Positions 164-48,629 of a stretch of 64,000 nt of DNA are shown here, piece by piece. The notes below the pieces were generated by a model, which saw only the letters and a program-made list of their open reading frames with translations, had not been told where the DNA came from and did not search any database. The stretch spans positions 8,116-72,115 of the forward strand of contig SUUX01000006.1 in NCBI GenBank assembly GCA_015062305.1. Reading direction: 5' to 3'. The position numbers and the translations under genes were made by a program. This DNA comes from Alphaproteobacteria bacterium (GTDB taxonomy: Bacteria; Pseudomonadota; Alphaproteobacteria; RF32; CAG-239). Position 1 is the stretch's first letter, and each line of letters opens with the position of its first letter.

Positions 164-787
164 TTATCTTTTTTTATATCCTTTTATCGCAGATTTCTTT
201 TCTTTAAACTTAAATATTTTATCATCTAGAGGCTTATCTTTTTGTGTATCATACAAAGAAACAGCGACCTCTACACTTTGAGGATCCACTATTCTCCACT
301 GTTTTAACTCCATCGGATTATTCGAAAACACCAACGTAATTGGCCCTAAATCGCCTTTATCGGCATAATCAAGAGTTATCGAAGTAGAACCTGTATCTTG
401 ATAAAAATCCGTAACTTTGATTTTTTCACCATCTATTTTAATATCATTTGCCAATATTAACGATGCAGGAATATCATCATAATCAATATGCGTAACTTGT
501 TTCAACTCTGTGTCATTATATACAATAAAATTACCATCTCCGACTATCAATACATTCACCGGGTCAGCATATTCCATTCTAATTTTATTTGGTTTTTTTA
601 TAAATAACCGTCCTTCTGCCGTAGCGCCATTGCTAGCCATTTGCACAAAAGTAGCTTCCAAACTTTTTATATTGTTCAAATATGCTTCTATTCTACTAAT
701 ATTCTCAGCACTTTGTGCTCTTGCAGACGTAGCAAACAAAACACCAAACGCTAAAAACAGCCATTTTTTCATTTTACAAAACCTCAT
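164..787 (-). CDS. lolA: Outer-membrane lipoprotein carrier protein LolA family (periplasmic chaperone)
   Basis: 207 aa. N-terminal signal peptide MKKWLFLAFGVLFATSARA followed by an ...EAYLNNIKSLEATFVQ... block typical of LolA. Size fits. Confidence 0.6.
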   Translation of the reverse strand: MRFCKMKKWLFLAFGVLFATSARAQSAENISRIEAYLNNIKSLEATFVQMASNGATAEGRLFIKKPNKIRMEYADPVNVLIVGDGNFIVYNDTELKQVTHIDYDDIPASLILANDIKIDGEKIKVTDFYQDTGSTSITLDYADKGDLGPITLVFSNNPMELKQWRIVDPQSVEVAVSLYDTQKDKPLDDKIFKFKEKKSAIKGYKKR

Positions 788-857
788 TCATAAATATCAT
801 TTCAAACAGCATTATATAATCAATAAATAAAAATAGTAAACACAAAGAATGCCCCCT

Positions 858-895
858 GTCAGCAAAACTTGACAAGAGGCATATCTATTTTACCT
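858..895 (-). terminator. Putative intrinsic terminator for the small ORF at 901..1050
   Basis: On the minus strand, 5 nt after the TAA stop: AUGCCUCUUGUCA / UGACAGGGGGCAU forms a 13-bp stem with 2 G-U pairs and an 8-nt loop, followed by UCUUUGUGUUU. Confidence 0.45.
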
Positions 896-900
896 AAAAA

Positions 901-1050
901 TTAATACTTAGAACTACACCCACAACCGCATCCGCTACCAGAAGATGACTTTGTCTCATTGTTATTATTATTTTCTTTAGATGTTGATGATTTCGTATTT
1001 TTTGCAGAGGCCATTTTGCTTGGGTTGTCTCTCATATCTTTACATGACAT
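901..1050 (-). CDS. Unannotated small ORF (49 aa), Cys/Gly-rich C-terminus: MSCKDMRDNPSKMASAKNTKSSTSKENNNNNETKSSSGSGCGCGCSSKY
   Basis: AGGAG sits 7 nt upstream of the ATG at 1050. The frame is open to the TAA at 901-903 and is followed by its own hairpin terminator. Below the 60-aa cutoff of the ORF track. Confidence 0.4.
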   Translation of the reverse strand: MSCKDMRDNPSKMASAKNTKSSTSKENNNNNETKSSSGSGCGCGCSSKY

Positions 1051-1145
1051 TATTTTTCTCCTAATAAATTAACAATTACGTACAAAAATCAATTTAAGAT
1101 ACTAAACAACAAAAACAATACACCCTAACCAAATAGTTACCTCTT

Positions 1146-2096
1146 TCACAATGCCCCATTACGACTTTTGAATACACCATCTTCAAAACCCTGAATAGTC
1201 GAGTTTTCATCTGCCATATCTAGCCTTTTTAAAGCCAAAGCCACATATTCTTTTTCTCTTTCGATTCCCAAAAATCGTCTTTTCAATTTTTTAGCTGTAA
1301 CTGCCGTAGTCCCAGATCCCAAAAAAGGATCAAACACCATATCGCCCTCATTACTTGAGGCCAATATCAATTTTGCTATCAGTTTCTCGGGTTTTTGAGT
1401 TGGATGAGATGTATTTTCAGGCATCGACCAAAATGGAATAGATATATCTGTCCATACATTAGAAGGCGATGTTAACCTATATTTTTGCCCTTCTGTTTCT
1501 GTCCAATCTTTCGGTTTTCCTTTTCCATCTCTATACGGAGCCAAAACCGGCCGTTGTATTTTTACAGCATCCAAATTAAACGTATAATTTTTTGTCTTAG
1601 AAAAAAACCATATATCTTCCAAACAATTTTTCCAATTATTTAGCGCCCCTCTTCCTTTTTCTCTTTCCCAAGAAATTCTATTTTGCAAAACAAAATATTT
1701 TCCTGCCACCTCCGGAATAAACAAAGATGTCTTCCAATCAGAACAAATATACACAGAAGCATCTTCCTTTAACAATCTTACAGTTTTTGATAACCATTGA
1801 TCCATCCACTTAATATATTCTTTAGCTTCCATTTCCTTAAATATATTTTTCCCAAAATTTTTGGTAATATTATAAGGAGGATCTACAATCATCAAATCCA
1901 CAAAATTATCTGGCAATAGATCCATCGCTTTCAAACAATCTTGATAAATTACCTGATTTTCAACATCGGATTCTTTTGCTTGTTTTTTTAAATTCAAAGA
2001 CTGAGAAACATATAAAGCTGCCTCGATTCGAGACAGCTCAATTGTTTTATTTCTTGGCGCTTTAGTTTTTTTCGCCGCCACGCTATTCTTCCCCAA
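1146..2096 (-). CDS. Beta-class N6-adenine (or N4-cytosine) DNA methyltransferase, CcrM/M.HinfI-like, orphan
   Basis: Motif IV MIVDPPYN near the N-terminus. HPTQKPEKLI and motif I FDPFLGSGTTAVTA lie C-terminal, ending FLGIEREKEY. This order matches CcrM/HinfI-type beta-class MTases. No restriction endonuclease neighbour. Confidence 0.85.
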   Translation of the reverse strand: MGKNSVAAKKTKAPRNKTIELSRIEAALYVSQSLNLKKQAKESDVENQVIYQDCLKAMDLLPDNFVDLMIVDPPYNITKNFGKNIFKEMEAKEYIKWMDQWLSKTVRLLKEDASVYICSDWKTSLFIPEVAGKYFVLQNRISWEREKGRGALNNWKNCLEDIWFFSKTKNYTFNLDAVKIQRPVLAPYRDGKGKPKDWTETEGQKYRLTSPSNVWTDISIPFWSMPENTSHPTQKPEKLIAKLILASSNEGDMVFDPFLGSGTTAVTAKKLKRRFLGIEREKEYVALALKRLDMADENSTIQGFEDGVFKSRNGAL

Positions 2097-2770: not shown

Positions 2771-3193
2771 CTATTTTTCACCACACGACCAAACTTTTAC
2801 AGCTCCAAATTGCTGCAACAACTCATCTTTGCTTTTTGCCTTAACTAATTCATCTGCTCTGGTCGATTTTCCTTCAAATACAATTTCTTCAACATTATCA
2901 ACAGGAACGCCATATGTACGCTCAACCATTTTTCCCTTAAGCTCAACAATTAGCACAAACTCCGATTCTGCCAAAGGAGCAACCGTTTCTTCATTTATTC
3001 CGTCCAAACGCACAGCTAAGTGAGCATCTCTTTTAAGCAAAGCCGTCTTTTTACCATCAAACTCCAACACAGGTTCTTTAGGAGCCCCTTCTCTAGCATC
3101 AATAAATATCGCCAACTCGCCATATTTATTTTCGATAATTTCATAAAAATCTTGTTTTTCTATCAATGTATAATACTGAGTTTCCATCTCCAT
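2771..3193 (-). CDS. Hypothetical protein (140 aa), first gene of the EIIA-HPr-methylase cluster
   Basis: Clean ORF, 5 nt from the EIIA gene. No recognisable motif; in particular no Walker A. Confidence 0.5.
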   Translation of the reverse strand: MEMETQYYTLIEKQDFYEIIENKYGELAIFIDAREGAPKEPVLEFDGKKTALLKRDAHLAVRLDGINEETVAPLAESEFVLIVELKGKMVERTYGVPVDNVEEIVFEGKSTRADELVKAKSKDELLQQFGAVKVWSCGEK

Positions 3194-3261: not shown

Positions 3262-5028
3262 GTGTTAAAAAGAACTCTACTAATGGAAAAAACAGCATCA
3301 AAATTTATCTGGCATTATGTAAAAATATTTAAATGGGCTTTTTTACTAATGCTTTTATTGCTTGTTATCGGTCAGACTTGTCGTCAGTTTATGCCTTATT
3401 ATCTGGCCCAAACTTACGAAACTGTTTCGGCTTTTGCTTCCACTCCCAATGCATGGCAAAACATCCTCAAATGCATAACTCTTGCCTTTATCCTTCAATT
3501 ATTAGGAACAAGCGTTCCAAACAGTGGTTTCCTCATTGTAGCCAAAATAGCACCCAAGCTAAGAACTATCGTAATCAGAGATGTATTTGACTATGTCAAC
3601 AAACATTCTATTGCTTATTTTTCAGAAGAAATGGCTGGCAATATTTCTAACAAAGTCCAGCAACTTCAAAGCGGAACAGCAGAAATATTTCAACATTGTC
3701 TAGACAGCATCTGGAGTGTTTGCTATGCCTCTATTGGCATAATAGTCCTCAGCTCGGTCAGTTTGTGGCTAACTCCCGTCTTTGCCTTTTGGGTTTTTTG
3801 CATGCTTCTTGTTGGCTTACACCTTGGAAACAAACTACACAAACTATCCAAAGAATCTTCTTCAAAACAAAGCCTTGCCAACGGCATGATTGTAGATTCT
3901 ATTGCAAATTATAGCGAGATAAAAAGCTTTGCTAATTTCAAATACGAAAGATTAAACCTACTAAAAACGCTCAAAACGCTACGCACCGCCGAAACCAAAG
4001 AAGAGTTTGGACGAGCTGTTATTATATTCACCCAACACACTATCACCGTTTGCTCTTTCTTCGGGTTTCTCATCTATACAGCCGTCCTTTTCAAAAACAA
4101 CATCTTAAGTCCAACAGACTTTATTTTTGTAAATGGCTTATTTACAACAATGAACGGTGTTGTTTTCAACATTACATGGACATACAACCAGCTTTCTCGC
4201 ATATTTGGAAAAATAAATTCCGCCCTAGACACCATTGCCACAACTCCGGAAATTGTAGATACGCCCAATGCCAAAAAGCTTAATACATCTAAAGCTCAAA
4301 TATCCTTCCAAAATGTAGATTTTGCATACAAAAACAACCACCAAATTTTTAACAACCTTAACATTAACATCAAGCCAGGAGAAAAAATTGGACTTGTCGG
4401 TCCCAGTGGCTCCGGCAAATCAACCTTCATAAAACTATTAGCCAGGTATTATGACATAAATAATGGCTCCATTCAAATAAATGGCTCAGATATCCGCTCC
4501 TTTACACAAGATTCTTTACACAAACACATTGCGACCATACCACAAGATGTATGCCTATTCAATCGGAGCCTAAAAGAAAACATTCGTTACGGTAAGACCA
4601 ATGCCTCAGATAAAGAAATCATATCTGCCGCAAAAAAAGCATCAGCACATGAGTTTATAAAAAATCTTTCAGAAGGATACGATTCTAAAGTTGGAGATAG
4701 AGGAGTAATCCTATCTGGAGGAGAACGACAAAGAATAGCCATTGCCAGAGCAATCTTAAAAGATGCTCCCATCTTAATTTTTGATGAAGCAACTTCTGCT
4801 CTAGATAGTGAAAACGAGAAACACATACAAGCGTCTTTATCTAAACTTATGAAAGGGAAAACGGTAATTGCCGTTGCCCACAGACTTTCCACTCTAAGAG
4901 AAATGGATAGGATAATCTATCTAGAAAAAGGCAAAATTATTGAAGAAGGATCTCACGATTCTCTTCTCAAACAAAATGGCAAATATGCCAAACTATTCAA
5001 CATTCAATCTGGCGGTTTTGTCAAATGA
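3262..5028 (+). CDS. ABC transporter, fused permease/ATP-binding protein (MsbA/exporter type)
   Basis: 588 aa. N-terminal 6-TM domain. Walker A GPSGSGKST, signature LSGGERQRIAIARA, Walker B ILIFDEATSALD. Confidence 0.9.
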   Translation: MLKRTLLMEKTASKFIWHYVKIFKWAFLLMLLLLVIGQTCRQFMPYYLAQTYETVSAFASTPNAWQNILKCITLAFILQLLGTSVPNSGFLIVAKIAPKLRTIVIRDVFDYVNKHSIAYFSEEMAGNISNKVQQLQSGTAEIFQHCLDSIWSVCYASIGIIVLSSVSLWLTPVFAFWVFCMLLVGLHLGNKLHKLSKESSSKQSLANGMIVDSIANYSEIKSFANFKYERLNLLKTLKTLRTAETKEEFGRAVIIFTQHTITVCSFFGFLIYTAVLFKNNILSPTDFIFVNGLFTTMNGVVFNITWTYNQLSRIFGKINSALDTIATTPEIVDTPNAKKLNTSKAQISFQNVDFAYKNNHQIFNNLNINIKPGEKIGLVGPSGSGKSTFIKLLARYYDINNGSIQINGSDIRSFTQDSLHKHIATIPQDVCLFNRSLKENIRYGKTNASDKEIISAAKKASAHEFIKNLSEGYDSKVGDRGVILSGGERQRIAIARAILKDAPILIFDEATSALDSENEKHIQASLSKLMKGKTVIAVAHRLSTLREMDRIIYLEKGKIIEEGSHDSLLKQNGKYAKLFNIQSGGFVK

Positions 5029-5807
5029 ACGATTTATACGAAATAGATATCCAAGAATTATTGTCAGAAGCATCAAAACAAGCCTTTTTAGCAGAACAAA
5101 ACGCAGAGCTGTTTAGTGAAGACCCTTCCAAAATTAGCGAAGTAGGCAACCGAGCCTACAAACAACACATTCTACAATTTATAAAACAAATTCAAACATA
5201 CCTTCCACAAATCACAACAGAAAGTATTTCTATTCTTATTTTTATGCTAATAAATTTAAACATAGATTCCGAAGACGAAGAAGAAATAATCAATTGTTTA
5301 AACATCCTATCCTCACAAGCAAATCTTCGCATTTCTAACTATTTAAATACAAGAAATCTCACATCAACCACGCAACAACCTTCATCTATTGATTTTTTAT
5401 TAAAAATTTTTCCATACAATGAAATAGAAGCCGTCGAAAACATGTTAAAAACATTGCATGAAAAATCTCTATATCTGGATGTCATTGCCAAAAACCCACA
5501 AATTTCTCAAAAAATAAAAAAAGAAATAACTATTCAACATCAACAAATAGCCACCATTTCTCAAGACATCATAAACATCAAGAAGCAACAACATCTTCTA
5601 TCTCAAAAAACACAAAAACAACTCCAAGAACAACAAAAAAGAGACCAAATTCGCCTCAAAAACAAACAACTTATCAACCAAGAGTTTCAAAACAGGCGCA
5701 ACCGTAAAATTGCAACAAAAATCAGTGAAAAAAACAACCAAGAATTAACTAAACAAGATATCAAAAAAATAAAAATTAAAATTATCTCGAACAAAAAATC
5801 TCGATAA
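5025..5807 (+). CDS. Hypothetical Q/K/N-rich low-complexity protein (260 aa), translationally coupled to the ABC exporter
   Basis: Start ATG overlaps the exporter stop (ATGA). Acidic DSEDEEE patch, then a long Q/K-rich predicted coiled-coil tail. No homology recognised. Confidence 0.5.
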   Translation: MNDLYEIDIQELLSEASKQAFLAEQNAELFSEDPSKISEVGNRAYKQHILQFIKQIQTYLPQITTESISILIFMLINLNIDSEDEEEIINCLNILSSQANLRISNYLNTRNLTSTTQQPSSIDFLLKIFPYNEIEAVENMLKTLHEKSLYLDVIAKNPQISQKIKKEITIQHQQIATISQDIINIKKQQHLLSQKTQKQLQEQQKRDQIRLKNKQLINQEFQNRRNRKIATKISEKNNQELTKQDIKKIKIKIISNKKSR

Positions 5808-6914
5808 TCAACCGTCCTCCAAATGCAACAACAAAGACACACTTATCAATGCCGCTATCAATGCCGGAGTAGAAACCGCCAATCCAACGGGAATGTAACC
5901 ATTAATCCCAAAAGCATAAACCAACTGTGTTAAGAAATATACTATAAATCCCGTAGATATCCCCCCCACAATCAAAAACATTACCCCTCCTCGACGATTA
6001 TTTGGCCTCAAAGCAAAAACCGCCGCAACCAAAACCATTGCGCATAACAAAAAAGGAGAAACCAACAAAGATAAATATCTCAACCTATGTCGCTGAGCCG
6101 AAAAACCGGACATTTCATAGAAACGTATAGTATCTGGCAGATCCCAAAAAGAAATAGCTTCTGGCGCCGCAAAATTTTCTTTAATTCTTTCCACATCAAG
6201 AGTTGTTTTATACGTAAGACTATTTTTTATCTCTGTAGGATACCCTGATTTAAAAATCCTCACATCTTTCAAATCAAAAAAACCGTCTTTTAACGTACCG
6301 GCAAAGGCTTCCAACCGTCTGCCTGGCTGAGAGCGCCTATCCATTTCCAAAATAGTAATTCCTCGCAAAAACAAGTCGTCCTTTTCTTGACGCAAAGAAT
6401 TGGCTTGCAAAACCATGATATTGTCATCATCTATTGCTTCTCTAATCCACAGACCTTTATCCGAAAATAAAACAGCTTTCGGATTTTTAGTTTTTAATCG
6501 ATATTCCAAAGTCTCATATAAATCATACATATCAGCAGCAATTGGATTCACCAATGCCACATTTACAACACCAACCATAAAAACCGTAACCAACACAGGA
6601 GTCAAAAAACCCCAAATAGAAACTCCGGCAGCTCGCATAACCACAAATTCATTTGTTTTACTAACCTTCCAAAAGGTTACCATTGCAGAAATCATAACCA
6701 CAAAAGGAAACACCATCTCTATTGTCTTTGGCATTTTTGTAATAGCCAATTCCAAAACATACCAAAAGCTCACCTCATAACGCCCTGAAGTTCTTCGCAA
6801 CAACTCCACCACCTCAAATAGCATTATAACGCTCAACACCATAAACAACACAGCCAAGAAATTTAGCAAAATTTGCTTAGTTAAATAGCGCCCCAAAATA
6901 GATGTTGGTTTCAT
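5808..6914 (-). CDS. LPS export ABC permease, LptF/LptG (YjgP/YjgQ) family
   Basis: 368 aa. N-terminal ILGRYLTKQILLNFLAVLFMVL... and 6 TM with a large periplasmic loop. A paralog at 49284 sits next to lptD. Confidence 0.8.
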   Translation of the reverse strand: MKPTSILGRYLTKQILLNFLAVLFMVLSVIMLFEVVELLRRTSGRYEVSFWYVLELAITKMPKTIEMVFPFVVMISAMVTFWKVSKTNEFVVMRAAGVSIWGFLTPVLVTVFMVGVVNVALVNPIAADMYDLYETLEYRLKTKNPKAVLFSDKGLWIREAIDDDNIMVLQANSLRQEKDDLFLRGITILEMDRRSQPGRRLEAFAGTLKDGFFDLKDVRIFKSGYPTEIKNSLTYKTTLDVERIKENFAAPEAISFWDLPDTIRFYEMSGFSAQRHRLRYLSLLVSPFLLCAMVLVAAVFALRPNNRRGGVMFLIVGGISTGFIVYFLTQLVYAFGINGYIPVGLAVSTPALIAALISVSLLLHLEDG

Positions 6915-12416: not shown

Positions 12417-13319
12417 ATGCTATGGATTATCAATGGGTTAATTTATGGTTTTTTCACTGCCTTATATACCCTCGTAAACCAACGCCACAAATTTAATGGC
12501 TACATTTTAGGAATATGGCGAGGCTTTGGTATTGCAATTATCTTTTTTCCCTTTCTTTTTTTATTTCCTCCCCAAACACTTGCGTTCAATTGGGCTTTAT
12601 TAATTTTTCAAGGATGGTTAATTGGCATTTACGATTCCCATTTATTTTTCTCTTCTGCTCAATATGGAGCAGGGCCCACTTCACGAACACTAGCCGTATC
12701 GTCATTAATCACAACCATCATATGGTGGATTATGACCCCAAATTTATTTTTTGAACTTATCGCAAACGAAAATGTCTTTATAACCTTAACATTCGTTCTT
12801 GCAGGGTTCACTGTCAGCTATTGGTATATGATAAAAACCCCCATCAGCAGAGCCGTTGCTCTCTATATGATTCCAGCCATCTTTGCTCTCGCCGGCATGA
12901 GCATAGCCACCAAAGAAATTGCGATGATGGGACAAGATGTTTGGTCTAATTTAACTTATTATTTAGTCGTCGCCACCTTTGTAAGCGGATGCTACAATAC
13001 AATTCAATATATCAAAAAAGAACAACCTAACACCAAGACATTCTTTAGCAACGTCTTTGCTCCTGAAATTGTAAAAACAGGCATATATATCATCGGCTTC
13101 TCAACACTTCTTATTGCATCAAAAACTATGGCGATGCGTCTTGCCCCAAACCCCGGATACGTTGTTGCCTTAGTTTTATCAGCGCCAATATTTGTATATA
13201 TCCTAAACAAGCACAACAAAATTCCAGATAACATCTCTGTCAAAGCTGGTTTCTGCATGCTTTTTTTTCTTGTTTTACTACTAATTATTGTTAATGGAAA
13301 TTGGGGAATAACAGACTAG
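12417..13319 (+). CDS. Polytopic membrane protein, hypothetical (about 10 TM; possibly DMT/EamA-like)
   Basis: Hydrophobic throughout; no diagnostic motif. 3' end overlaps the hemW 3' end convergently. Confidence 0.5.
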   Translation: MLWIINGLIYGFFTALYTLVNQRHKFNGYILGIWRGFGIAIIFFPFLFLFPPQTLAFNWALLIFQGWLIGIYDSHLFFSSAQYGAGPTSRTLAVSSLITTIIWWIMTPNLFFELIANENVFITLTFVLAGFTVSYWYMIKTPISRAVALYMIPAIFALAGMSIATKEIAMMGQDVWSNLTYYLVVATFVSGCYNTIQYIKKEQPNTKTFFSNVFAPEIVKTGIYIIGFSTLLIASKTMAMRLAPNPGYVVALVLSAPIFVYILNKHNKIPDNISVKAGFCMLFFLVLLLIIVNGNWGITD

Positions 13320-14390
13320 ACTTTCAATAATTTTATTTAACAGTACAAAACCTTTTTTTGTTACCTTTACCTTGATATCAGTATCCTGTATCAAACCACT
13401 TTGTTCTAACTCTTGTTTTTTTTCTTTGCTTACAAAATCATCAAACCTCAAACCGCAACAATCTTCAAAATGTTTCTTATTAATTCCTTCAACCAACCTT
13501 AGTCCCATCAAAACCAATTCTTCAGCTCTTTCTTCTTTAGTAAGAGCCTCCATTTTTCTACAATGCTCAACAGCCCAAACTTGACCATCAACACTTATTC
13601 TTCCGTGCGCTCCCTGTCCAACACCAACATAATCATCTCCTTGCCAATACAGCTTATTATGTCTGCACTCAAACCCATCCTTTGCATAATTAGATACCTC
13701 ATATTGTTTATACCCATACTCTGCAAGAACTTCTCCTGTCATTGTATACAAAGCCACTGCCGCATCATCATTCAGTGCTTGCACGCCTTTTTTTGCAAAA
13801 ACAGTTCCTTCTTCTATCATAAGTTGATACAACGATAAATGCCGAAAACCTAACGAACAAAATTGCATCAACTCTTTTTGCCACATCTCTTTATTTTGAT
13901 TTGGCAAAGCATACATCATATCTGCTGAATGATTATCAAAGACACGCACCACCTTTTCAGCCACCAACAAAGCATCTTCCACACTGTGCGTTCTACCCAA
14001 AAACTTCAAACTTTCATCGTTCAAAGATTGAACACCCAAAGACAATCTGTTTATACCTGCTTTACGTAAATCTTCAAACAAATTGGGCTTATTTGTATTT
14101 GGGTTTGCTTCCAACGATATCTCTACATTATCACCAAAACCCCAAAATTTATCGACAGCGTCAATCACTCTCTCCACATTTTTAGGCGTTAAAAGAGACG
14201 GCGTTCCTCCCCCAAAAAACAATGAAGAAACTTTTCTTCTTTTTGTTTTTGCTGCATAATATGCTAAATCATCAACATATTTATCAATCAACATATCTTG
14301 AGGCACATCAGACTTCACCTTACTGAAAAAATCACAATAAGGGCATTTGCTGCGGCAAAATGGCCAATGTATATAAACCCCAAAAGACAT
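13281..14390 (-). CDS. hemW: Radical SAM heme chaperone HemW (HemN-like, oxygen-independent coproporphyrinogen oxidase family)
   Basis: N-terminal HWPFCRSKCPYCDFFS (CxxxCxxC at residues 12-19). 369 aa, which is HemW size. Confidence 0.85.
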   Translation of the reverse strand: MSFGVYIHWPFCRSKCPYCDFFSKVKSDVPQDMLIDKYVDDLAYYAAKTKRRKVSSLFFGGGTPSLLTPKNVERVIDAVDKFWGFGDNVEISLEANPNTNKPNLFEDLRKAGINRLSLGVQSLNDESLKFLGRTHSVEDALLVAEKVVRVFDNHSADMMYALPNQNKEMWQKELMQFCSLGFRHLSLYQLMIEEGTVFAKKGVQALNDDAAVALYTMTGEVLAEYGYKQYEVSNYAKDGFECRHNKLYWQGDDYVGVGQGAHGRISVDGQVWAVEHCRKMEALTKEERAEELVLMGLRLVEGINKKHFEDCCGLRFDDFVSKEKKQELEQSGLIQDTDIKVKVTKKGFVLLNKIIESLVCYSPISINNN

Positions 14391-16220: not shown

Positions 16221-16275
16221 ATTTTTTTCCTTTATAAAAAATCCTACATCTTATTTAGTAAACTTTTTCGCCCAA

Positions 16276-16309
16276 TGCAAGTAAAGCCCGTAAAAACGGG
16301 CCTTACTTG
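16276..16309. terminator. Hairpin between the lipoprotein gene 3' end and the hslV start (putative terminator)
   Basis: GCAAGTAAAGCCCG taaaaa CGGGCCTTACTTGC (14-bp stem, 1 mismatch), followed by gaaTATTTTTTATT. Confidence 0.4.
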
Positions 16310-28584: not shown

Positions 28585-29514
28585 ATGTTTTTCAATAAAT
28601 TTTCATCTTCTCCAACTCAAACATCATCTCCTCAGAAAATTCATTTTTTAGGAATCTCTGCACAATCCCTATATTTGGCCTCCATCTTACAAAACAAAGG
28701 CCACAACATTAGCATCATCTGTACTCCTCCAGAGGCAGACGAACTCCATGCGACAGATATTATCCTAAAAGATAAAAGCCATCTTCAAAATCAGAGATAC
28801 AAATTCAACTATATTTTTGAACAAACGTCCCAGCCCGATATTCTTTTCATTGCTTCTGACATACCTTTTCTCAGAAAAGACCTGCTATTGGCATCTCCTA
28901 GACAACTACACAATACGAAAACTATCAATTTAACACCCACCGCCCCCTCAACTTTCACATCCGAGCTACTTAATATTCCAACCACAAATGCCTATCTTCA
29001 TGGCTGGCTCCAAAAAGATAAAAACATCATCATTCAATCAAGCAACAATTACAAACTTATCATCAGCACACCCAAAAACTCACCCGTTCACACCACCCTT
29101 TCATCACTTTTCGAGAATTCTCTTGTTGAATGCTGCACCAATGAAAACGATACAGAAAATTTATGGAAATGGCTAATTCCACAAGCAATCAGCATTCTAT
29201 TAGAAACAAATGGCGTAAAAAACATATATTCATACAGCAAAACCGAGAATGGACGCAAAACAATAGATTCTCTTTTAAAAGAGCTTTCTGCAATAGCCTC
29301 TTCCAGAGAGGTTAGTCTCAACCATAGTTCTATTTTAACACAACTTCATAGCCAACCTGAAAACAACGGATTTTTAACAAAGAACACTCCCAGAAACATC
29401 TTATCTCTCCACCTTCAGTGCCTAAGCCAACTTCTTTTTCAAGGTATAAGCCCCAACAACCCCAACTATCCGGTATTGCATCAAATGATTAACTCTGCTC
29501 TTAACAAATATTAG
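28585..29514 (+). CDS. Divergent 2-dehydropantoate 2-reductase (PanE/ApbA) family protein with a degenerate NAD(P)-binding motif
   Basis: NLWKWLIPQAISILLETNG resembles the KPR 'KlxxNaxxN' block. SKTENGRKTIDSLL resembles the 'SMxxDxxxGRxTEID' block. The GxGxxG is replaced by FLGISAQS. Confidence 0.4.
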   Translation: MFFNKFSSSPTQTSSPQKIHFLGISAQSLYLASILQNKGHNISIICTPPEADELHATDIILKDKSHLQNQRYKFNYIFEQTSQPDILFIASDIPFLRKDLLLASPRQLHNTKTINLTPTAPSTFTSELLNIPTTNAYLHGWLQKDKNIIIQSSNNYKLIISTPKNSPVHTTLSSLFENSLVECCTNENDTENLWKWLIPQAISILLETNGVKNIYSYSKTENGRKTIDSLLKELSAIASSREVSLNHSSILTQLHSQPENNGFLTKNTPRNILSLHLQCLSQLLFQGISPNNPNYPVLHQMINSALNKY

Positions 29515-29594
29515 CATAATCACACAAATCACTTGAAGAAAAAAGCTTCCAATATTATAATCCATGAAAAAGAATGCACCTCAAGAGGTAGAAT

Positions 29595-30653
29595 ATGGAT
29601 TTACGTTATTATATTTCTATTTTCGGAGCTATCATCGCTTTAATCTTGTCATTAGGATTACTGGGATATTCGAATTTACGCAAAAAACAACATCCCGCCA
29701 TTTTTATAATCACCCTAAGCCTCTTAGCCTCTCTCATATATTGCTTCTTTTTTTGGGATTCACTGGATTTCATAAATAACACCTCACCATGGACACTTAT
29801 CAGTATCTTTATAGGTATAATTCCAATAATTGTTAGTCATTTGCTTAGGTTAAAAACATTTTGGCACTATTTTTTCACCATAATTCCCATTGGCTTTATA
29901 ATTTTTTTCTCTAACATCCCAACAGATATCATCCCATCTCTTCCTGCATGGGGAAACCACATCATATGCTTTTTAATATGGGCTTACATATCCCTAACTT
30001 TTCACATTATTGCACCCAAAACAACTCTAGCCTCAACAGAAACCGCCTCAACAGGCTTAGGCATATATATATTATCCCTCTTAAAAGCCATTCCTTTTAG
30101 CTTTGGCTTTATTGCTCTTATTTTTAGCGTTTCTAGCCTAGCTCTTATCATACACAACAAAAAAGCCTCAAAAATAAGCATTCCTAAAGTCGATGCCGAT
30201 TGTTTAGGTTTTATTTTAGGTGGACTTTTCTATTTATGTGCAACAGAAAACGCTTTTAGCCCTGTTCTTATTTTTATGATGCTATTTATTTGTGAAACAG
30301 GATTAGCTTTGATACTAAAACTGTCTTTTCTACCTCAATATAAAGACCTTCATAACAACACAGCCTGCTCAAAGGCAGAGCAAAAAGGCCTCTTGCCTCC
30401 AATAATAAACAACCTTTTTGCTCGCATAAACATTCTTCTTGTTCTAATGGGATGCTTTCAAGTATACGCCCCCAATCAACATTCCATTCTTCTTATCTGC
30501 TTTGCAATCACATGCTGGCAGATGTATCGCCTTATAAATTGGAATTCGTTGACCTCAAACATCAAAGAAACCAATCTTATGGTTCAGCAAGCACTCAAAA
30601 AAAATATTAACAGGCTAAAAAACAACATCAACAACAAAAACAAGGCTGACTAA
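29595..30653 (+). CDS. Polytopic membrane protein, hypothetical (352 aa)
   Basis: About 9-10 TM. No diagnostic motif recognised. Confidence 0.5.
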   Translation: MDLRYYISIFGAIIALILSLGLLGYSNLRKKQHPAIFIITLSLLASLIYCFFFWDSLDFINNTSPWTLISIFIGIIPIIVSHLLRLKTFWHYFFTIIPIGFIIFFSNIPTDIIPSLPAWGNHIICFLIWAYISLTFHIIAPKTTLASTETASTGLGIYILSLLKAIPFSFGFIALIFSVSSLALIIHNKKASKISIPKVDADCLGFILGGLFYLCATENAFSPVLIFMMLFICETGLALILKLSFLPQYKDLHNNTACSKAEQKGLLPPIINNLFARINILLVLMGCFQVYAPNQHSILLICFAITCWQMYRLINWNSLTSNIKETNLMVQQALKKNINRLKNNINNKNKAD

Positions 30654-32020
30654 TGAAACTACTAAACTACTTAAAAAACATATTTCTTCAGCCTCGGACA
30701 ACATCTCCCGAAGAATTAACTCCTGAAGAAGCCTTACAAATAAACTTCAAAGTTGTTGTTGTTGAGTTTGCCGATAATGTAGAAGGCAATTGCGGAGAAA
30801 TAATCACAGCAAAACTACAGTCCTGTGAAGGTCTTTCTGTATCATATTTCAACCAACCTTTTGACAAAAGCTTCTTAAATTTAGAAAGCAGAACTCTTTT
30901 TGACTTAATTGATAAAGGTCAAACAATTTTAGATCGCACCGGCGCAGATGTTCTAGTATGGGGATGCCGAGAAGAAAATAAAATAAGACTAAACTTTCAA
31001 AATCCCCTTCAATATGAAACCGACGGAGATTGCTTCATATCGTTACTTGACAGTCTCTATTTACCAGCAGATATTTTCAAGAATTATGGAGCTTCTTTTC
31101 CAGCTCCTCTCACAAATTTATTATATGGAGCCATCATAAGTGCTCTTAATTTAGAAAACAAAACTCAAAAAATTCAAAAAAAATATTTACTCAAAAAAAT
31201 TATTGCTCGATTATCTGCAGATAATTCAGCAAAAAATCTTTCCGTAGATTATATTCCTTTTGTCATGAATTTTCTTAGTATCATCTATCTAAGTTACTGC
31301 GCCAAATCCAACGAAGACAAAGATTTTAAGATTGTACACAACCTGCTAGATACAGCCCTAAAACACCAAGACCTTATACAAAACCCCATTCATTTAGGTT
31401 GCATATATTACCACCTTGGTCAGTTATATGATGCCACAGCAGAACATTTAACCAAAAGGCCAACAAGCTCATATCGCAACTCCATAAACAGCTACCGCCT
31501 TGCTCAAAAATATCTCGGCAAATATACATATCCTTACGATTATGGATTAATTTCTTTCAAGCTCTCCAACCTTTTCTATAACTATTGGAAACAAAAAGAA
31601 GACCTCTCATCTCTACGCGATTCCGTATTTTATATGAGAGAAGCAGAAAAAATATTCACCTACGCTCTCTTTCCAGAATTTTGGGCTCAGATAGAAGGAA
31701 GGTTAGGATACCTTTTATCCCTCCTCAGCAACATCACCGACAATAATGAAATTGCAGAACTATCCATTGCTGCATACAAAAACCAACAAAAAATCATCAC
31801 CGAAAAGAGAGACCCCCTCCTCTGGGCTAGAATTCAAGAAAAAATTGGAGAAACCTATTTTCGTTTAGGAAAAAAAGAATCAGACAAAGATTCTCTTGAA
31901 GAAGCCTTAGAATATTTTCATGATGCCTTGTATATCTTCGAAAATATGAATCTTGAAAATGACAGCCAAAGGATATCTTCTTCAATATCAAAAACCAATA
32001 ATGTTATTAGTTATCAATAA
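30653..32020 (+). CDS. Hypothetical protein (455 aa), helical/TPR-like C-terminal half
   Basis: ATGA start-stop overlap with the upstream gene. No signal peptide. Confidence 0.5.
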   Translation: MKLLNYLKNIFLQPRTTSPEELTPEEALQINFKVVVVEFADNVEGNCGEIITAKLQSCEGLSVSYFNQPFDKSFLNLESRTLFDLIDKGQTILDRTGADVLVWGCREENKIRLNFQNPLQYETDGDCFISLLDSLYLPADIFKNYGASFPAPLTNLLYGAIISALNLENKTQKIQKKYLLKKIIARLSADNSAKNLSVDYIPFVMNFLSIIYLSYCAKSNEDKDFKIVHNLLDTALKHQDLIQNPIHLGCIYYHLGQLYDATAEHLTKRPTSSYRNSINSYRLAQKYLGKYTYPYDYGLISFKLSNLFYNYWKQKEDLSSLRDSVFYMREAEKIFTYALFPEFWAQIEGRLGYLLSLLSNITDNNEIAELSIAAYKNQQKIITEKRDPLLWARIQEKIGETYFRLGKKESDKDSLEEALEYFHDALYIFENMNLENDSQRISSSISKTNNVISYQ

Positions 32021-35841: not shown

Positions 35842-38722
35842 TAACGTACCATTCTTTAACTCGAGCCAAATGTTCATAATCCGAATATTCTGGCACTCTT
35901 TTAGGATTTGGATGACAGATATACGCCGTTTCTTCAATATCAAATAGAGTTATCAATTCCTTTATTCTTTGCTCCGTATTTTCCAATATTTTTTCCAGTT
36001 CTTTCTCTATCACGATCTGTTTCTTAGACAATTGCCAATACATCAATTTTTCAACGTCTGCAGCAGATACCCCCTCAAAACCACCACTCTTTACAATCAA
36101 TCCTTCCAACGGTAGCTGAGGAGCAAAACCAGCGCAAACTTCCTTAACACTTCTCGCTTTACCTGTTTTATAATCAATGATATTCACTCGTCCATCAGAC
36201 ACAACATCTATTCTATCTGCCTTTGCTGTTACCCTAAATCTTCCTCCGGCCAAATCCCAATCAACAAACCCTTTTGTTTCATTTATAACCCGAACAATTT
36301 CTTTTCTATAATCTTGCTCTATCTCAGCCAAATGCTCTATCATTTTTGCAAATCTTGGCCACCAAAACGCCTTTTTATCTGCCAGTTTTTCATCTGCAGA
36401 AAACTTTTTACGTCCCATTTCTAATAAAATTTCTTTTCCAGATTCCGGAAACACGCATGAATATTTGTTATTAAATTCTTCCAATACCGAATGCAATAAA
36501 TCTCCAAAATCAGCCGGTGTAAGTTCTTCTTTTAAGCCATCCAGAGGATATAATTTCAAAATATATTTAGCAAAAACACTATATGGGTCTCGCATTAACA
36601 GCTCTATACCACTAACAGATAGTTCTCTTGGTCTTACTTGCAAAGGAGGGGTCGGAGCAGGCGCCAAAATTTTTTCAAATATTTCTGGTTCATCTATTTT
36701 TTCTGATGCATATGAATATCTTGTTTCTACCAAGTGCTTAACATCTATTTTCCAGGCCTTCAAAACAGTTTCCAAACGCATCCACCATCTAGATTTCAGC
36801 ATTGGAGCCCCCTCCACTCTGTTTGCTCGAGTTAAATATACATCTTTGGCCCCCATAAACGACACCAAATCCAAACCCAAAATCCCAATAGCCTTTTCCT
36901 GCAGAGGGAATCCAAAATCTTTTTTCATTGGTCTAGACATCCAAGGATCTGACGGAGCTGCTTGTGGCCACACTCCTTCGTTAACCTCTCCCAAAATCAT
37001 AACGTCTGCTTGATTAAATCTCGCCTCAATAGGTCCTAAAATTTTCAACCTCGGATGCATACCATAGCGCAACCTCACCGGTTTTTCAAAAGACAAAGCC
37101 TCAAAAAAAGCCAAATATTCAGAAGAATCTATTTTTCCTAAAACATCTGAGTTTTCAATCAGCTCTGCTACAAGCTTAGCCCCCACATCTCCAGCCTCTC
37201 CTCGCCATAAAGCCTCTGCACCGCCTAAAGCATCACTCTGAGCTATTTTTTCTGCGGTCCTTATGTGTTCTTCAACCAGTTCTTTTAACTGCACATCTGT
37301 TTTTCTTATTATTTCCCGCAAAGGAAGCAACTTTTCTTGTAATTCTCTTAAAATACTTTCATCATTATCATTTGGCTTTACTCTTTTTCTCCATACATTT
37401 TTTTCCATATTTCGTGTCTGGTTTCTCACATCTGATTTTACCATGCCCAAACAACACAACGGATGTTTCAACAACGCCAATATCTCCGACTTACCGGCAT
37501 CTTGTTGTGCCGCAGAAAACACCAACCGCATAAAAATCCCCCATGGCGTCAAAGCCAATGGCTTGCCGGCAGAATCATCAATCTTTATATTCCAACGTTC
37601 CAGTTCTCCGGCCACTCTTCTGGCCAAATTTCTATCTGGCGTAACCAGAATTGCTGTTTTTTCAGGCGTTTCCAAAACCTCACGCATCAAAAGAGCTATA
37701 CATAAAGCTTCTTCTCTAACATCAGCACAATCCAACAAATGCAAACCGTTTATAGCTTGTCTGTCCATGCTTTTATCTGTCAAAAGCCTCCATTTATCAC
37801 TCTTGGAAGCCGGGCGCATCATTTCAGATAACAACACTTCTCTTTCTTCACGTTGAGAAACCGCTATATTTTTTACTTCTTCTCTAGAAACGCCCAAATA
37901 CTCCAAAAGTTTTTTTAGTTCATATTGTGGATGCGTTTCATCCACCTCATCCCAAGATTCCTCATCCAAATTTTTATCCAAGCAGTTCAAAATTACCTCT
38001 CCCCGAGGCAGATTTGCAACCACTTTCACCAATTCTCGCATAGCCGGATATGTAGCTGTACTTCCTGCCACAATAATTCTTTTTTGTGTTTTATGTTTTT
38101 CCCAAATTTCTGCTTGAGTTCGAATCAATTGCATTTTTCTCTTACTTGCATCTACACTTTTTCGCTCAATCAAAATTTCAGGCCAATATTTAGTTATAAT
38201 TTCCAAAAAACGTAAAGTTTCTTGCCAATGTCCGGCATATTCTTCAGGAACCAAATTATTCAAATTGGCAAAGTCCAACTCTTCATAATTAACCGTATCA
38301 ATCAAATTGCCCAAATCTCTTGCTAAAGCGTACGCCTGATTCAAGGATATTTTCTCCGCTCCAAATTCTTGAGGACGGGACATAATAATTTTAACAAACA
38401 ACAAATTCCTTTCCATCGGGTTCATTGCTGGCAACATAGCCATTTCTGCCTGTGTTGCATCTATACCAAACCATACCACATCTTCTTCCATTTCACCCAA
38501 AGGCATCATTTGTGGCAACATTGTTGGTTGCATTCCTTGTCTTCGCACAAAAGCATCTGCCATTGTTTTGCAAGATCTTCTATTTGGCAACAGCAACAAC
38601 ACATCCGATAGTTCCAACGGATTCTCTCTATATTCATTCAGCAATTTTTCCGCAACAACATCTGCAAAATTATTAGACGCAGAAATATTAAAAATATTAT
38701 TTTGCACCAAACATTTCCTCAA
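35822..38722 (-). CDS. addB: Double-strand break repair protein AddB
   Basis: 966 aa. Inactive helicase-like N-terminus with a C-terminal nuclease. Immediately upstream of and overlapping addA. Confidence 0.85.
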   Translation of the reverse strand: MRKCLVQNNIFNISASNNFADVVAEKLLNEYRENPLELSDVLLLLPNRRSCKTMADAFVRRQGMQPTMLPQMMPLGEMEEDVVWFGIDATQAEMAMLPAMNPMERNLLFVKIIMSRPQEFGAEKISLNQAYALARDLGNLIDTVNYEELDFANLNNLVPEEYAGHWQETLRFLEIITKYWPEILIERKSVDASKRKMQLIRTQAEIWEKHKTQKRIIVAGSTATYPAMRELVKVVANLPRGEVILNCLDKNLDEESWDEVDETHPQYELKKLLEYLGVSREEVKNIAVSQREEREVLLSEMMRPASKSDKWRLLTDKSMDRQAINGLHLLDCADVREEALCIALLMREVLETPEKTAILVTPDRNLARRVAGELERWNIKIDDSAGKPLALTPWGIFMRLVFSAAQQDAGKSEILALLKHPLCCLGMVKSDVRNQTRNMEKNVWRKRVKPNDNDESILRELQEKLLPLREIIRKTDVQLKELVEEHIRTAEKIAQSDALGGAEALWRGEAGDVGAKLVAELIENSDVLGKIDSSEYLAFFEALSFEKPVRLRYGMHPRLKILGPIEARFNQADVMILGEVNEGVWPQAAPSDPWMSRPMKKDFGFPLQEKAIGILGLDLVSFMGAKDVYLTRANRVEGAPMLKSRWWMRLETVLKAWKIDVKHLVETRYSYASEKIDEPEIFEKILAPAPTPPLQVRPRELSVSGIELLMRDPYSVFAKYILKLYPLDGLKEELTPADFGDLLHSVLEEFNNKYSCVFPESGKEILLEMGRKKFSADEKLADKKAFWWPRFAKMIEHLAEIEQDYRKEIVRVINETKGFVDWDLAGGRFRVTAKADRIDVVSDGRVNIIDYKTGKARSVKEVCAGFAPQLPLEGLIVKSGGFEGVSAADVEKLMYWQLSKKQIVIEKELEKILENTEQRIKELITLFDIEETAYICHPNPKRVPEYSDYEHLARVKEWYVNEAEDD

Positions 38723-39281
38723 TAAAACATCTCAAAGCTTTTCCTCTATGAGACACTGCGGCTTTTTCATTTCCTTCTACTTCTGCAAATGTTTTATTCC
38801 ACCCATCCGGAACAAACACAGGATCAAACCCAAAACCTTTGTTTCCTCTTCGCTCCGGTATAATCATTCCATCAACTTTCCCCTCAAAAAAGCGCACTTT
38901 TTCTCCAGGTATTTTAAGAGCCAACACACAAGCAAAATAAGCAGACCAATCTTCAGCATTCATGCTTTGCAACTCTGCCACCAACTTACCTATACGAGCA
39001 TCACTATCTGGAGCATATCTTGCAGAATAGACACCAGGTTTGCCACCCAACGCCTTCACACACAAACCAGAATCATCTGCCAAACAAGGCAATCCTGTAT
39101 ATTCGGCCAAAGTTTCTGCCTTCATAGCTGCATTTTCTGCAAAAGTTTCTCCTGTTTCTTCCACATCTGGCAACTCCATATCTTGAGCAGACAACACTTC
39201 CACCCCCCATGGAGCCAACATTTCTTTTAACTCTTCTATTTTTCCCTCATTATGTGTTGCCAAAAGCAATTTTTTTATCAT
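38697..39281 (-). CDS. rdgB: Non-canonical purine NTP pyrophosphatase (RdgB/HAM1, ITPase)
   Basis: LATHNEGKIEE...DSGLCV. 194 aa. Confidence 0.9.
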   Translation of the reverse strand: MIKKLLLATHNEGKIEELKEMLAPWGVEVLSAQDMELPDVEETGETFAENAAMKAETLAEYTGLPCLADDSGLCVKALGGKPGVYSARYAPDSDARIGKLVAELQSMNAEDWSAYFACVLALKIPGEKVRFFEGKVDGMIIPERRGNKGFGFDPVFVPDGWNKTFAEVEGNEKAAVSHRGKALRCFIEEMFGAK

Positions 39282-40690: not shown

Positions 40691-40750
40691 CTTTCTCTTC
40701 AAAAATTGTTTTCTAATGTGCATATCTATAAGGAATTTAGTGACTAATGC

Positions 40751-40780
40751 TTGACAAGTCAAGAGCTATAGTCTTTTAAT
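40751..40780 (+). promoter_or_regulatory. Candidate promoter for the glycosyltransferase gene, within a palindromic TTGACAAGTCAA element
   Basis: TTGACA-N18-TTTAAT, 54 nt upstream of the ATG at 40834. Lies in the divergent grpE/GT region. Confidence 0.3.
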
Positions 40781-45160: not shown

Positions 45161-46930
45161 TTATTTACCATACTTGTTACGAGCAACATAATGAGTATGC
45201 AACAAGTGATGGGCTTTTTCCCCACCAGCCTTACCCAAATATTCTTTATACAAGGTTTTTACAGACTCATTATGATGAGACAAACGATTAGCTGCTTTCA
45301 GATCTTCATTCATCAATCCTTTCGCACGCTTTTTACGAATATCATCGGTAATGCCTCTCGGTTTTGGCTGTCCAGGCAACATTACTCTTGGCTGTCCACC
45401 ACCAGAGATACAGCCTCCACGGCAAGCCATCACCTCAACAAAGTGATATGGCATTGGCTCTCCATTTGCCCTTGCTTCTCTAATTCTATTGAGAATAACC
45501 TCAATATTTCCACAACCATGAGCTACAGCTATTCTTATCTTAGTGTCATTGATTACAATTTCGGCCTCTTTAATGCCCTCTAAGCCTTCTATAGCCTTAA
45601 AATTCACTTCACCCAGCTCTTCTCCAGTAATATAGAAATAAGCTGTACGCAAAGCCGCCGTCATAACACCTCCGGTCACACCAAAGATTGTTCCAGCACC
45701 GGAATATTCTCCCAACGGACTATCTGCCTCTTCTTCTGGCAGATTTCTAAAGTCGATTCCGGCTTGTTTTATCATTCTGCAAAGTTCTCTGGTAGTCAAA
45801 GAAACATCAACATCTTGATATCCGGAAGAACTCATATCTTTGCTTCTGGTAATCTCCCATTTTTTTGCAGTACATGGCATTATAGAAACCACCCTTATCT
45901 TAGATGGATTTATTGCCATTTTCTCTGCATAATAGGTCTTAGCCAAGGCCCCAACCATAGATTGAGGAGATTTACATGTTGAGAAATTATCTATCATATC
46001 ATGATGATATTTTTCCAACATATCAACCCAAGCCGGACAACAAGACGTAAACATCGGCAAACTTTCTGGATTCTTGGTAAAACGATTTACAAACTCTGTT
46101 GCCTCTTCTATAATCGTCAAATCAGCACCAAAGTTGGTATCAAACACCTTATTAAACCCTAGTCTGCGCAATGCGGCATAAGTCTTGCCAGTCAAGTTTT
46201 TACCAAACTCATAGCCAAACTCTTCACCTATTGCCACTCTCACAGCCGGAGCAATCTGCACCACAGTAATCAGCTCTGGATCACAAAGCATATCCCATAC
46301 TTTTTGTGTCTCATCATACTCCACAATAGCCCCTGTTGGACAATGCGCTGAACATTGTCCGCATTTAATACAAGGACTATCCGCCAAAGGAATACCTCCG
46401 GCAGCAGTAATTCTTGTTGCCAAACCTCTGTTTAGATAGCTCAAAGCCCAAACATTTTGCTGGTTCTGACAAACCTCCACACAGCGGCCGCAAACCACAC
46501 ATTTAGAAGGATCAAGCACTATAGACTTTGTTGAATCATCTTTTTCCAACTTTTTAGTCAAGCTTGGCAAACGAGAAGAAGAAATCCCAAACGTATTTGA
46601 CAGGTCTTGCAGTTCACAATGCCCGGAACGAATACATGTCAAACACTCATTGGGGTGATTGCTCAAAATCAGCTCCAAAACCGTACGTCTTACTGCAACA
46701 ATTTCAGCATCTCCGGTAATCACTTCCATACCTTCGGCAACAGGTGTACAACAAGAACGCAAAATTCTGCCATTCACTTTCACAATACACATTCCGCAAC
46801 CGGCACTTGGATCAACATCTGGATGCTTACAAAGGGTCGGAATATCTATATGAGCCTTTCTTGCTGCCTCTAAAATGCTTGTTCCAGCCGGAACTTCAAC
46901 CTCAAAATTATCTATTTTTAACTTTACCAT
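45161..46930 (-). CDS. hydA: [FeFe]-hydrogenase catalytic subunit HydA (M3-type: 2Fe-2S + His-ligated 4Fe-4S + 2x[4Fe-4S] + H-cluster)
   Basis: H-cluster motifs L1 FTSCCPAW, L2 MPCTAKKWE, L3 EVMACRGGCISGGGQP. N-terminal NuoG-like CxxC..C. HPNECLTCIRSGHC. CVVCGRCVEVC and CIKCGQCSAHC. Confidence 0.9.
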   Translation of the reverse strand: MVKLKIDNFEVEVPAGTSILEAARKAHIDIPTLCKHPDVDPSAGCGMCIVKVNGRILRSCCTPVAEGMEVITGDAEIVAVRRTVLELILSNHPNECLTCIRSGHCELQDLSNTFGISSSRLPSLTKKLEKDDSTKSIVLDPSKCVVCGRCVEVCQNQQNVWALSYLNRGLATRITAAGGIPLADSPCIKCGQCSAHCPTGAIVEYDETQKVWDMLCDPELITVVQIAPAVRVAIGEEFGYEFGKNLTGKTYAALRRLGFNKVFDTNFGADLTIIEEATEFVNRFTKNPESLPMFTSCCPAWVDMLEKYHHDMIDNFSTCKSPQSMVGALAKTYYAEKMAINPSKIRVVSIMPCTAKKWEITRSKDMSSSGYQDVDVSLTTRELCRMIKQAGIDFRNLPEEEADSPLGEYSGAGTIFGVTGGVMTAALRTAYFYITGEELGEVNFKAIEGLEGIKEAEIVINDTKIRIAVAHGCGNIEVILNRIREARANGEPMPYHFVEVMACRGGCISGGGQPRVMLPGQPKPRGITDDIRKKRAKGLMNEDLKAANRLSHHNESVKTLYKEYLGKAGGEKAHHLLHTHYVARNKYGK

Positions 46931-46932
46931 GG

Positions 46933-48624: not shown

Positions 48625-48629
48625 TATGC

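Follow-up and report, generated by a model that had tools for sequence, protein, structure and literature searches.

A minus-strand open reading frame (ORF) at 901..1050 of the window, the whole 64,000-nucleotide stretch of alphaproteobacterial contig SUUX01000006.1 analyzed here, lies between a lolA homologue and a DNA methylase gene and encodes a 49-aa product (MSCKDMRDNPSKMASAKNTKSSTSKENNNNNETKSSSGSGCGCGCSSKY; stop codon 903-901). Comparison with related genomes identifies it as a real protein-coding gene under purifying selection, and its product as the member of a predicted new family of microproteins restricted to a clade of uncultured gut Alphaproteobacteria; the family is narrow. Positions 1119..839 of the minus strand form a self-contained small gene, with a conserved promoter-like element, a strong ribosome-binding site (RBS), the 49-codon ORF and an intrinsic terminator. 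As to function, we tentatively favor a free-standing thiolate metal-binding microprotein, by analogy with the CGC-containing disordered nickel-binding segments of HypB and SlyD, a reading that stops somewhat short of being probable.

Conservation of the reading frame and selection on the protein

The first-pass annotation had described a discrete, unannotated peptide gene with its own RBS and terminator between lolA and the methylase. The minus-strand ORF translates exactly as given there, and both signals were confirmed and are conserved in relatives. The word "unannotated" does not hold, as gene callers had already registered the exact 49-aa product on at least 24 public contigs, which come from ENA and JGI metagenomes and from one NCBI metagenome-assembled genome (MAG, GCA_045538005.1), and an orthologue is labeled "hypothetical protein" at NCBI. 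The codons for Cys41-Gly-Cys-Gly-Cys45 (916..930, minus strand) make up the proposed metal or thiol motif, of which residues 41-43 are the Cys-Gly-Cys that is invariant in the family.

An open frame of 49 codons is weak evidence by itself, since this low-complexity DNA is largely open in other frames too. Relatives were found by a methylase search of species-representative genomes, which returned about 50 loci with 66-83% identity from uncultured gut Alphaproteobacteria whose hosts are deer, sheep, yak, chicken, horse, and humans. At 23 related loci, a small ORF of 31-75 aa occupies the same slot (DNA methylase, ORF, lolA), in one of them (L015) in inverted orientation. These ORFs are rich in Ser, Asn, and Lys and end in (S/G/H/R)CGC(G)(C) followed by 1-7 residues, with a final Tyr or Lys being common. 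When all these loci and the entire window were scanned in six frames for small ORFs carrying CGCG or GCGC no more than 14 residues from the C-terminus, only the syntenic ORFs were recovered.

In alignments of 17 and of 22 family members, Cys-Gly-Cys provided the sole invariant columns, and its codons differ at the wobble base only (GGA/GGT/GGC/GGG and TGC/TGT). The ratio of nonsynonymous to synonymous substitution rates (dN/dS), which had been proposed as a check together with conservation in relatives, was 0.02-0.12 in six close pairs, with changes located mainly in third positions (e.g., 0/1/8). The single intraspecies nucleotide polymorphism in the gene, found in one same-species contig, is synonymous, and length differences between relatives preserve the reading frame. 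A lack of frame conservation is thereby clearly ruled out, and dN/dS, synteny, and the invariant Cys-Gly-Cys together argue for a protein-coding gene under purifying selection, which by these patterns retains the start region and, above all, the Cys-Gly-Cys unit.

An antisense ORF on the plus strand (959-1072) was considered and rejected. It shares its wobble positions with the sense frame and could therefore mimic the substitution pattern; most relatives have internal stops in that frame, and it reads the Cys-Gly-Cys codons as Pro-His/Gln-Pro with free variation between His and Gln.

Outside the invariant unit the family is labile. The Ser/Asn/Lys-rich body changes rapidly in both sequence and length between species, while within sub-clades an N-terminal MSCKDMRD and a K(S/M)AS motif persist. 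The number of Cys-Gly units ranges from 1.5 to 3.5 (CGC, CGCG, CGCGC, CGCGCG), which fits an expanding and contracting TGYGGN repeat, and the Cys-Gly-Cys sits 1-9 residues from the C-terminus across the family.

The rearranged locus L015 has its microprotein gene at 5975-6181 (minus strand), inverted and convergent with the methylase, and its lolA at 1268-1876 (minus strand), beyond the methylase at a distance of 4 kb. Promoter element, RBS, and terminator have moved together with the inverted gene. As the gene keeps its own signals there, though inverted and with lolA distant, it represents an independent unit rather than a lolA leader.

Four loci (L029, L044, L049, and L051) have the methylase directly beside lolA with a gap of 61-101 nt and no small gene, and at L053 an unrelated Lys-rich 35-aa ORF without Cys (6001-6108) occupies the slot. 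The gene was thus gained in one clade or lost in others.

Transcription and translation signals

The Shine-Dalgarno sequence AGGAG, placed by the first-pass annotation 7 nt before the ATG, was read directly at 1058..1062 of the minus strand, separated by the spacer AAAAATA from the ATG at 1050. A site of the AGGAG/GGAGG type is found shortly 5' of the start codon in all 23 orthologues.

A terminator scan placed an intrinsic terminator at 839..882 of the minus strand, consisting of a 13-bp hairpin (882-849) with 6 G-C pairs and a T-rich tract (848-839), which reads TTCTTTGTGTTT. The hairpin and U-tract are those of the first-pass annotation, which had set them 5 nt past the stop codon and the boundary of the feature at 858. 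The distance is in fact 18 nt, although a weaker outer helix in the minimum free energy fold begins about 7 nt past the stop, and the hairpin reaches 849, just outside that boundary. The region downstream of the ORF folds better than its shuffles (z = -3.1), and a strong hairpin with a T run follows the stop codon in all 17 single-gene relatives.

Upstream, a conserved promoter-like element spans 1092..1119 of the minus strand, where ATTGTTT (1119-1113) and CTTAAAT (1098-1092) are separated by 14 nt; with the spacer counted from the hexamer, this is ATTGTT-N15-CTTAAAT. In 22 of the 23 orthologous loci, the corresponding CTTGTT-N15-(A/C)TTA(T/A/C)NT is found 64-82 nt before the ATG. A matrix built from the element gave one strong match in the 64-kb window, which was the gene's own site, and when related loci and window were scanned on both strands, 22 of 26 matches were upstream of microprotein genes.

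The element differs from the sigma-70 type; there is a loose resemblance to the RpoH type, described in S. meliloti as CTTGAA/CC-N15-16-CCTATAT/CT (PMC4843759), and to the CTTG-N18-ACTAAAT sites of hslV and grpE. The latter pattern occurs exactly twice in the window (0.07 expected), at 16253-16281 and 40735-40763 (both minus strand), upstream of hslV and grpE, and the hslV promoters of related gut Alphaproteobacteria follow CTTGCA-N16-(C/A/T)(C/T)TA(C/A)AT. This type of site is probably the RpoH-type heat-shock promoter of the clade.

An RpoH (sigma-32) identity of the microprotein promoter itself was considered and found unsupported. In the window, no enrichment of the generic alphaproteobacterial consensus was seen, and relaxed patterns occur at chance level. 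With a matrix from 10 hslV and grpE promoters of the clade, the peptide promoters did not score above background; 6 of 23 reached p < 0.05, and at 2 of these 6 the best-scoring site differs from the conserved element.

Downstream of the gene, lolA has a sigma-70-like promoter of its own between the hairpin and lolA (TTTACT-N18-TATAAT, 840..811, minus strand), which is conserved in relatives.

A sister clade with two small genes

Six loci (L023, L027, L042, L073, L075, and L090) carry a two-gene operon in the same slot. The first protein is 50-75 aa long and its C-terminus reads SSGCGCGC(G)xxxxxY; some members contain 7-9 His. At 8-10 residues before the CGCGC stands a conserved acidic block, D-V-E-I-E-V-D-E-Y/F. 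The second mini-ORF encodes 28-39 aa (MSCSTRNTKSASSQ...KKSK) without CGC and has its own AGGAG. In these two-gene relatives the terminator follows the second mini-ORF, and no hairpin is found directly after the CGC-bearing ORF.

The second mini-ORF was missed by gene callers and lies at L027 2623-2712, L042 5830-5919, L073 6214-6303, L075 6179-6274, L023 6176-6295, and L090 about 5653-5739. Three species share the first 14 residues of its product exactly, although their upstream proteins are only 36-39% identical.

A fusion of the second mini-ORF with a CGC tail was considered as the origin of the window peptide and dropped. BLASTP gave no alignment, and shuffle tests gave z <= 2.9, mostly < 2, so the idea is unsupported beyond shared composition.

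Database comparisons

Pfam gave no match for the window peptide, metallothionein models included, and NCBIfam gave a best E of 0.08 for 22 family members, with no metallothionein match. No match was found among PDB sequences at E up to 10 or, at the locus, in Rfam. While a word-indexed search with the single peptide found no homologue, an exhaustive phmmer search of 1.84 billion representatives returned one match, a 44-aa orthologue, and a profile of 22 members returned 9 matches among 5.8 billion proteins, all from the same clade. The sole profile match that carries a source name is a "hypothetical protein" (NCBI). From these database results the family is narrow and uncharacterized.

One 90-aa entry (P0009) is a read-through of a microprotein of the L017 type, in which ...GKHCGCNK is followed by Q instead of the stop codon. 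It consists of one member sequence from three short contigs, and a sequence variant or assembly error is its probable cause.

Product properties and a possible role in metal binding

The window peptide has a grand average of hydropathy of -1.37, an isoelectric point of 9.1, 4 Cys (8%), and 0 His. Neither a signal peptide nor a membrane segment was found in it, and it is extremely hydrophilic and predicted to be cytoplasmic. Since it contains no Ile, Leu, Val, Phe, or Trp (ILVFW fraction 0.00), no hydrophobic core is possible, and the peptide is probably intrinsically disordered.

The proposal of metal binding comes from two Gly-separated thiols fixed at the end of a flexible polar chain, with His nearby in relatives. 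The terminal (Cys-Gly)n-Cys would form a thiolate metal site on a flexible tail-like protein. Ni(II) could be bound by one Cys-Gly-Cys in an N2S2 or S2 site, and Zn, Fe, or Cu by four thiolates that two peptides supply jointly; the microprotein would act as a buffer, store, or donor of a thiophilic metal. The 7-9 His and the acidic block beside CGCGC(G) in the sister clade would fit the same role.

In HypB, the CxxCGC of the disordered N-terminal extension forms a square-planar Ni(II) site of picomolar affinity, and the His/Cys-rich tail of SlyD stores Ni and passes it to HypB (PMC12284835), while the Cys-Gly-Cys tripeptide itself is a mimic of the Ni site of acetyl-CoA synthase (PMC13348028). 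The E. coli SlyD Ni-binding tail, whose sequence was checked, ends in GKGNGGCGCH. A terminal Cys-Gly-Cys on a disordered polar segment, as in HypB and SlyD, is present in the window peptide; its CGCGC with 0 His has neither the CxxCGC spacing nor the His-rich context, which is confined to the sister clade.

Two observations were counted in favor of metal binding, namely that the invariant residues are limited to two Cys with a Gly between them and that there are His-rich relatives, in which His stands beside the motif (KHCGC, NHCGCGCGSHSAHY, SGCGCGCDSHKLRY) and 7-9 His are carried. The first-pass annotation had left the choice between a metal-binding microprotein and a ribosomally synthesized peptide precursor, and these features make the former the plausible half.

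Several points weigh against a metal role. The argument proceeds from a short motif and composition and not from homology, as the likeness to SlyD and HypB consists of short motifs with no homology detectable in Pfam, NCBIfam, or PDB. With only 4 Cys and 0 His, the window peptide is far below a metallothionein-like Cys content, and its motif is C-x-C-x-C, not the CxxCGC of HypB. Neither Ni/Zn/Cu transporters, hyp, ure, and metal-sensing regulators nor any link to Ni enzymes (hyp, [NiFe] hydrogenase, urease) were seen among the 54 of 63 window ORFs of about 90 aa or more that were scanned against Pfam (nine ORFs of 93-111 aa were left out), and the first group is also absent from the relatives' flanks. 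The hydrogenase of the window is of the [FeFe] type, which does not need Ni. Finally, Cys-X-Cys could equally be a redox-active dithiol.

Alternative functions

The best-surviving alternative, still unlikely, is a small regulatory protein whose Ser/Lys-rich body would contact a larger partner or nucleic acid, with a merely structural or bridging Cys-Gly-Cys. Many bacterial proteins of less than 50 aa act through binding to larger proteins (see also 10.1101/2023.06.02.543501). The conservation of MSCKDMRD and K(S/M)AS within sub-clades would agree with such a function, and the two-gene operon of the sister clade suggests two small proteins acting together. Yet no partner can be named, the neighboring genes differ in L015, and what is invariant across the family is the Cys-Gly-Cys alone, not the body that would make the contact.

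A precursor of a ribosomally synthesized and post-translationally modified peptide (RiPP) would have a (Cys-Gly)n core converted to thiazol(in)es or thioamides by an enzyme encoded elsewhere, and an N-terminal part serving as leader. Gly-Cys repeats are classical cyclodehydratase substrates, as is well established for microcin B17 and the linear azol(in)e-containing peptides. A core-like (Cys-Gly)n end is present, many family members end in Tyr, and the acidic and hydrophobic block before CGCGC could be a recognition motif; that block is confined to the sister clade, and the leader of the window clade is of low complexity and unstable in length and sequence.

The first-pass annotation had already remarked that no modifying enzyme is adjacent, and this was borne out in both the scanned window ORFs and the relatives' flanks. 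YcaO, LanB/C/M, a radical-SAM (S-adenosylmethionine) SPASM protein, MNIO, a C39-peptidase transporter, and an immunity gene were all absent from the 54 scanned ORFs, and peptide-modifying enzymes were not called within 7-10 kb in three related contexts (L087, L088, L090), where the flanking genes are of the housekeeping kind (dnaN, recF, EIIA, HPr, methylase, lolA, response regulator, porin). The precursor option is weakened accordingly. It is made less likely by the strict synteny of the family in a housekeeping region, not in a mobile biosynthetic cluster, by the unstable leader, and by cores as short as CGCK, and we regard it as improbable.

The sole radical-SAM protein of the window (13281-14390, minus strand) has a HemN_C domain and is by its domain content a HemW-like heme chaperone or of the coproporphyrinogen oxidase type, not a peptide maturase. 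An ABC transporter at 3262-5028 was rejected as a partner, since it has no C39 peptidase domain and is not beside the gene in L087, L088, and L090.

The boldest form of the precursor idea is an unlinked pathway, in which a distant enzyme would turn a precursor kept in the housekeeping locus into a poly-thiazol(in)e or thioamide metallophore; we give this little credence. In a milder alternative, the family may have originated in this clade via expansion of the TGYGGN hexanucleotide repeat and may represent the smallest free-standing protein dedicated to acting as a CGC-type metallochaperone or metal buffer.

A redox-active or thiol-stress microprotein, in which Cys-Gly-Cys would act as a strained reversible disulfide or as a persulfide carrier, perhaps within a stress regulon, is doubtful to about the same degree as the RiPP precursor. 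CXC motifs are known from disulfide-isomerase mimics and from the tail of Erv2. An invariant Cys pair with a single invariant Gly between the two would suit this function, as would a promoter that is not sigma-70-like and bears a loose likeness to the RpoH type (PMC4843759) and to the hslV/grpE sites. Against this, the matrix trained on hslV and grpE scores the peptide promoters at background and the relaxed pattern is not enriched, the organism with its [FeFe] hydrogenase looks strictly anaerobic, and the His-rich relatives point to metals instead.

A cis-acting leader peptide attenuating lolA, or a non-coding RNA with an incidental ORF, is largely refuted and very improbable: a short ORF ending 18 nt before a terminator hairpin upstream of lolA and the largely open other frames of this DNA would be in keeping with it, but the L015 inversion, which places lolA elsewhere, and lolA's own conserved sigma-70-like promoter past the terminator led us to reject the attenuator, and the two-gene clade without a hairpin after the CGC-bearing ORF, selection at the protein level, the internal stops of the antisense frame in most relatives, and the lack of an Rfam match stand against one or the other.

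Genomic context

The lolA homologue lies at 164..775 and the DNA methylase, of the N6_N4 family, at 1146..2081. The methylase had been called SAM-independent, which is contradicted by its DPPY and FDPFLGSGTT motifs. These make it SAM-dependent, and we take its family membership to imply an ordinary enzyme of this kind. It may not be a classical CcrM orthologue. Methylase homologues with 54-58% identity were found in MAGs labeled Bacillota, Bacteroidota, Ignavibacteria, and Treponema from gut and soil (L054-L075), a distribution that suggests either horizontal spread or mis-binned contigs.

The window has a G+C content of 37.7% and encodes housekeeping genes and an [FeFe] hydrogenase. The hydrogenase large subunit stands with NuoF-like and NuoE-like partners at 45161-49109 (minus strand) in a HydABC-type arrangement, which indicates an anaerobic, fermentative lifestyle. 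Upstream of an EIIA-Man/HPr pair, a conserved 140-aa protein without a Pfam match (2771-3193, minus strand) is syntenic in all relatives examined. Several of the 54 scanned ORFs had no Pfam match at the thresholds used; ORFs of 182-455 aa without one lie at 28585-32020 and 36465-39230 (plus strand) and at 56075-57690 and 62220-63296 (minus strand).

Significance

Proteins of less than 50 aa are routinely missed or left as "hypothetical". Here, purifying selection on a microprotein could be recognized from sequence alone, across about two dozen species of a poorly known gut group (ruminants, birds, humans). The family also offers a compact case of microprotein origin and diversification, with a variable number of Cys-Gly units, a fast-evolving body, and a split into a two-gene operon.

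If metal binding is true, disordered Ni-binding segments, which until now have been described only as attachments to HypB and SlyD, would have a free-standing counterpart in the microprotein. The latter would then be a very small and easily synthesized test case of how a single C-G-C on a disordered carrier handles metals in an anaerobe. The result is not a major surprise. The family is narrow, and its function is a proposed one.

Comparison with known systems

Among small ribosomal peptides, McbA of microcin B17 resembles the window peptide in its Gly-Cys repeats toward the C-terminus. It differs in that the McbA gene is accompanied in its operon by genes for the McbBCD cyclodehydratase/dehydrogenase, export, and immunity, none of which occurs among the 54 scanned ORFs or beside the gene in relatives.

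Metallothioneins (SmtA/BmtA, MymT) are likewise small, have Cys-X-Cys and a high content of Ser and Lys, and contain no aromatic or hydrophobic residues. Their many Cys form metal-thiolate clusters, whereas the family has 2-4 Cys (4 of 49 residues in the window peptide). Hpn and Hpn-2 of Helicobacter are free-standing Ni-storage proteins of about 60 aa with low-complexity metal-binding sequence, and Hpn consists of about 47% His. The family shares the free-standing, low-complexity character, and the sister-clade proteins (...HIQEEGSHTEKHSSCGCGCGSKLKY) are comparable in their His/Glu/Cys make-up. It differs in having 0-14% His, a Ser/Asn/Lys-rich body, and no homology to Hpn.

HypB also has Cys-Gly-Cys at the extreme end of a disordered polar segment. 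Its motif lies at the N-terminus with the spacing CxxCGC, draws on the N-terminal amine, and is joined to a GTPase domain encoded in a hyp operon, whereas the microprotein motif is C-terminal, has the form C-G-C(-G-C), and belongs to a free protein of 31-75 aa with no hyp genes nearby. Some family members end in CGCGE, similar to the CGCGE(G) of HypB. The form that PMC12284835 confirms is CTTCGC only.

In SlyD, the tail extends an FKBP/chaperone protein and contains far more His, Asp, and Cys than the family does, with the window peptide at 0 His. The likeness lies in a disordered tail that ends GGCGCH, next to which the family has the endings GGCGCGCNSSY, GGCGCSRNY, and KHCGCNK.

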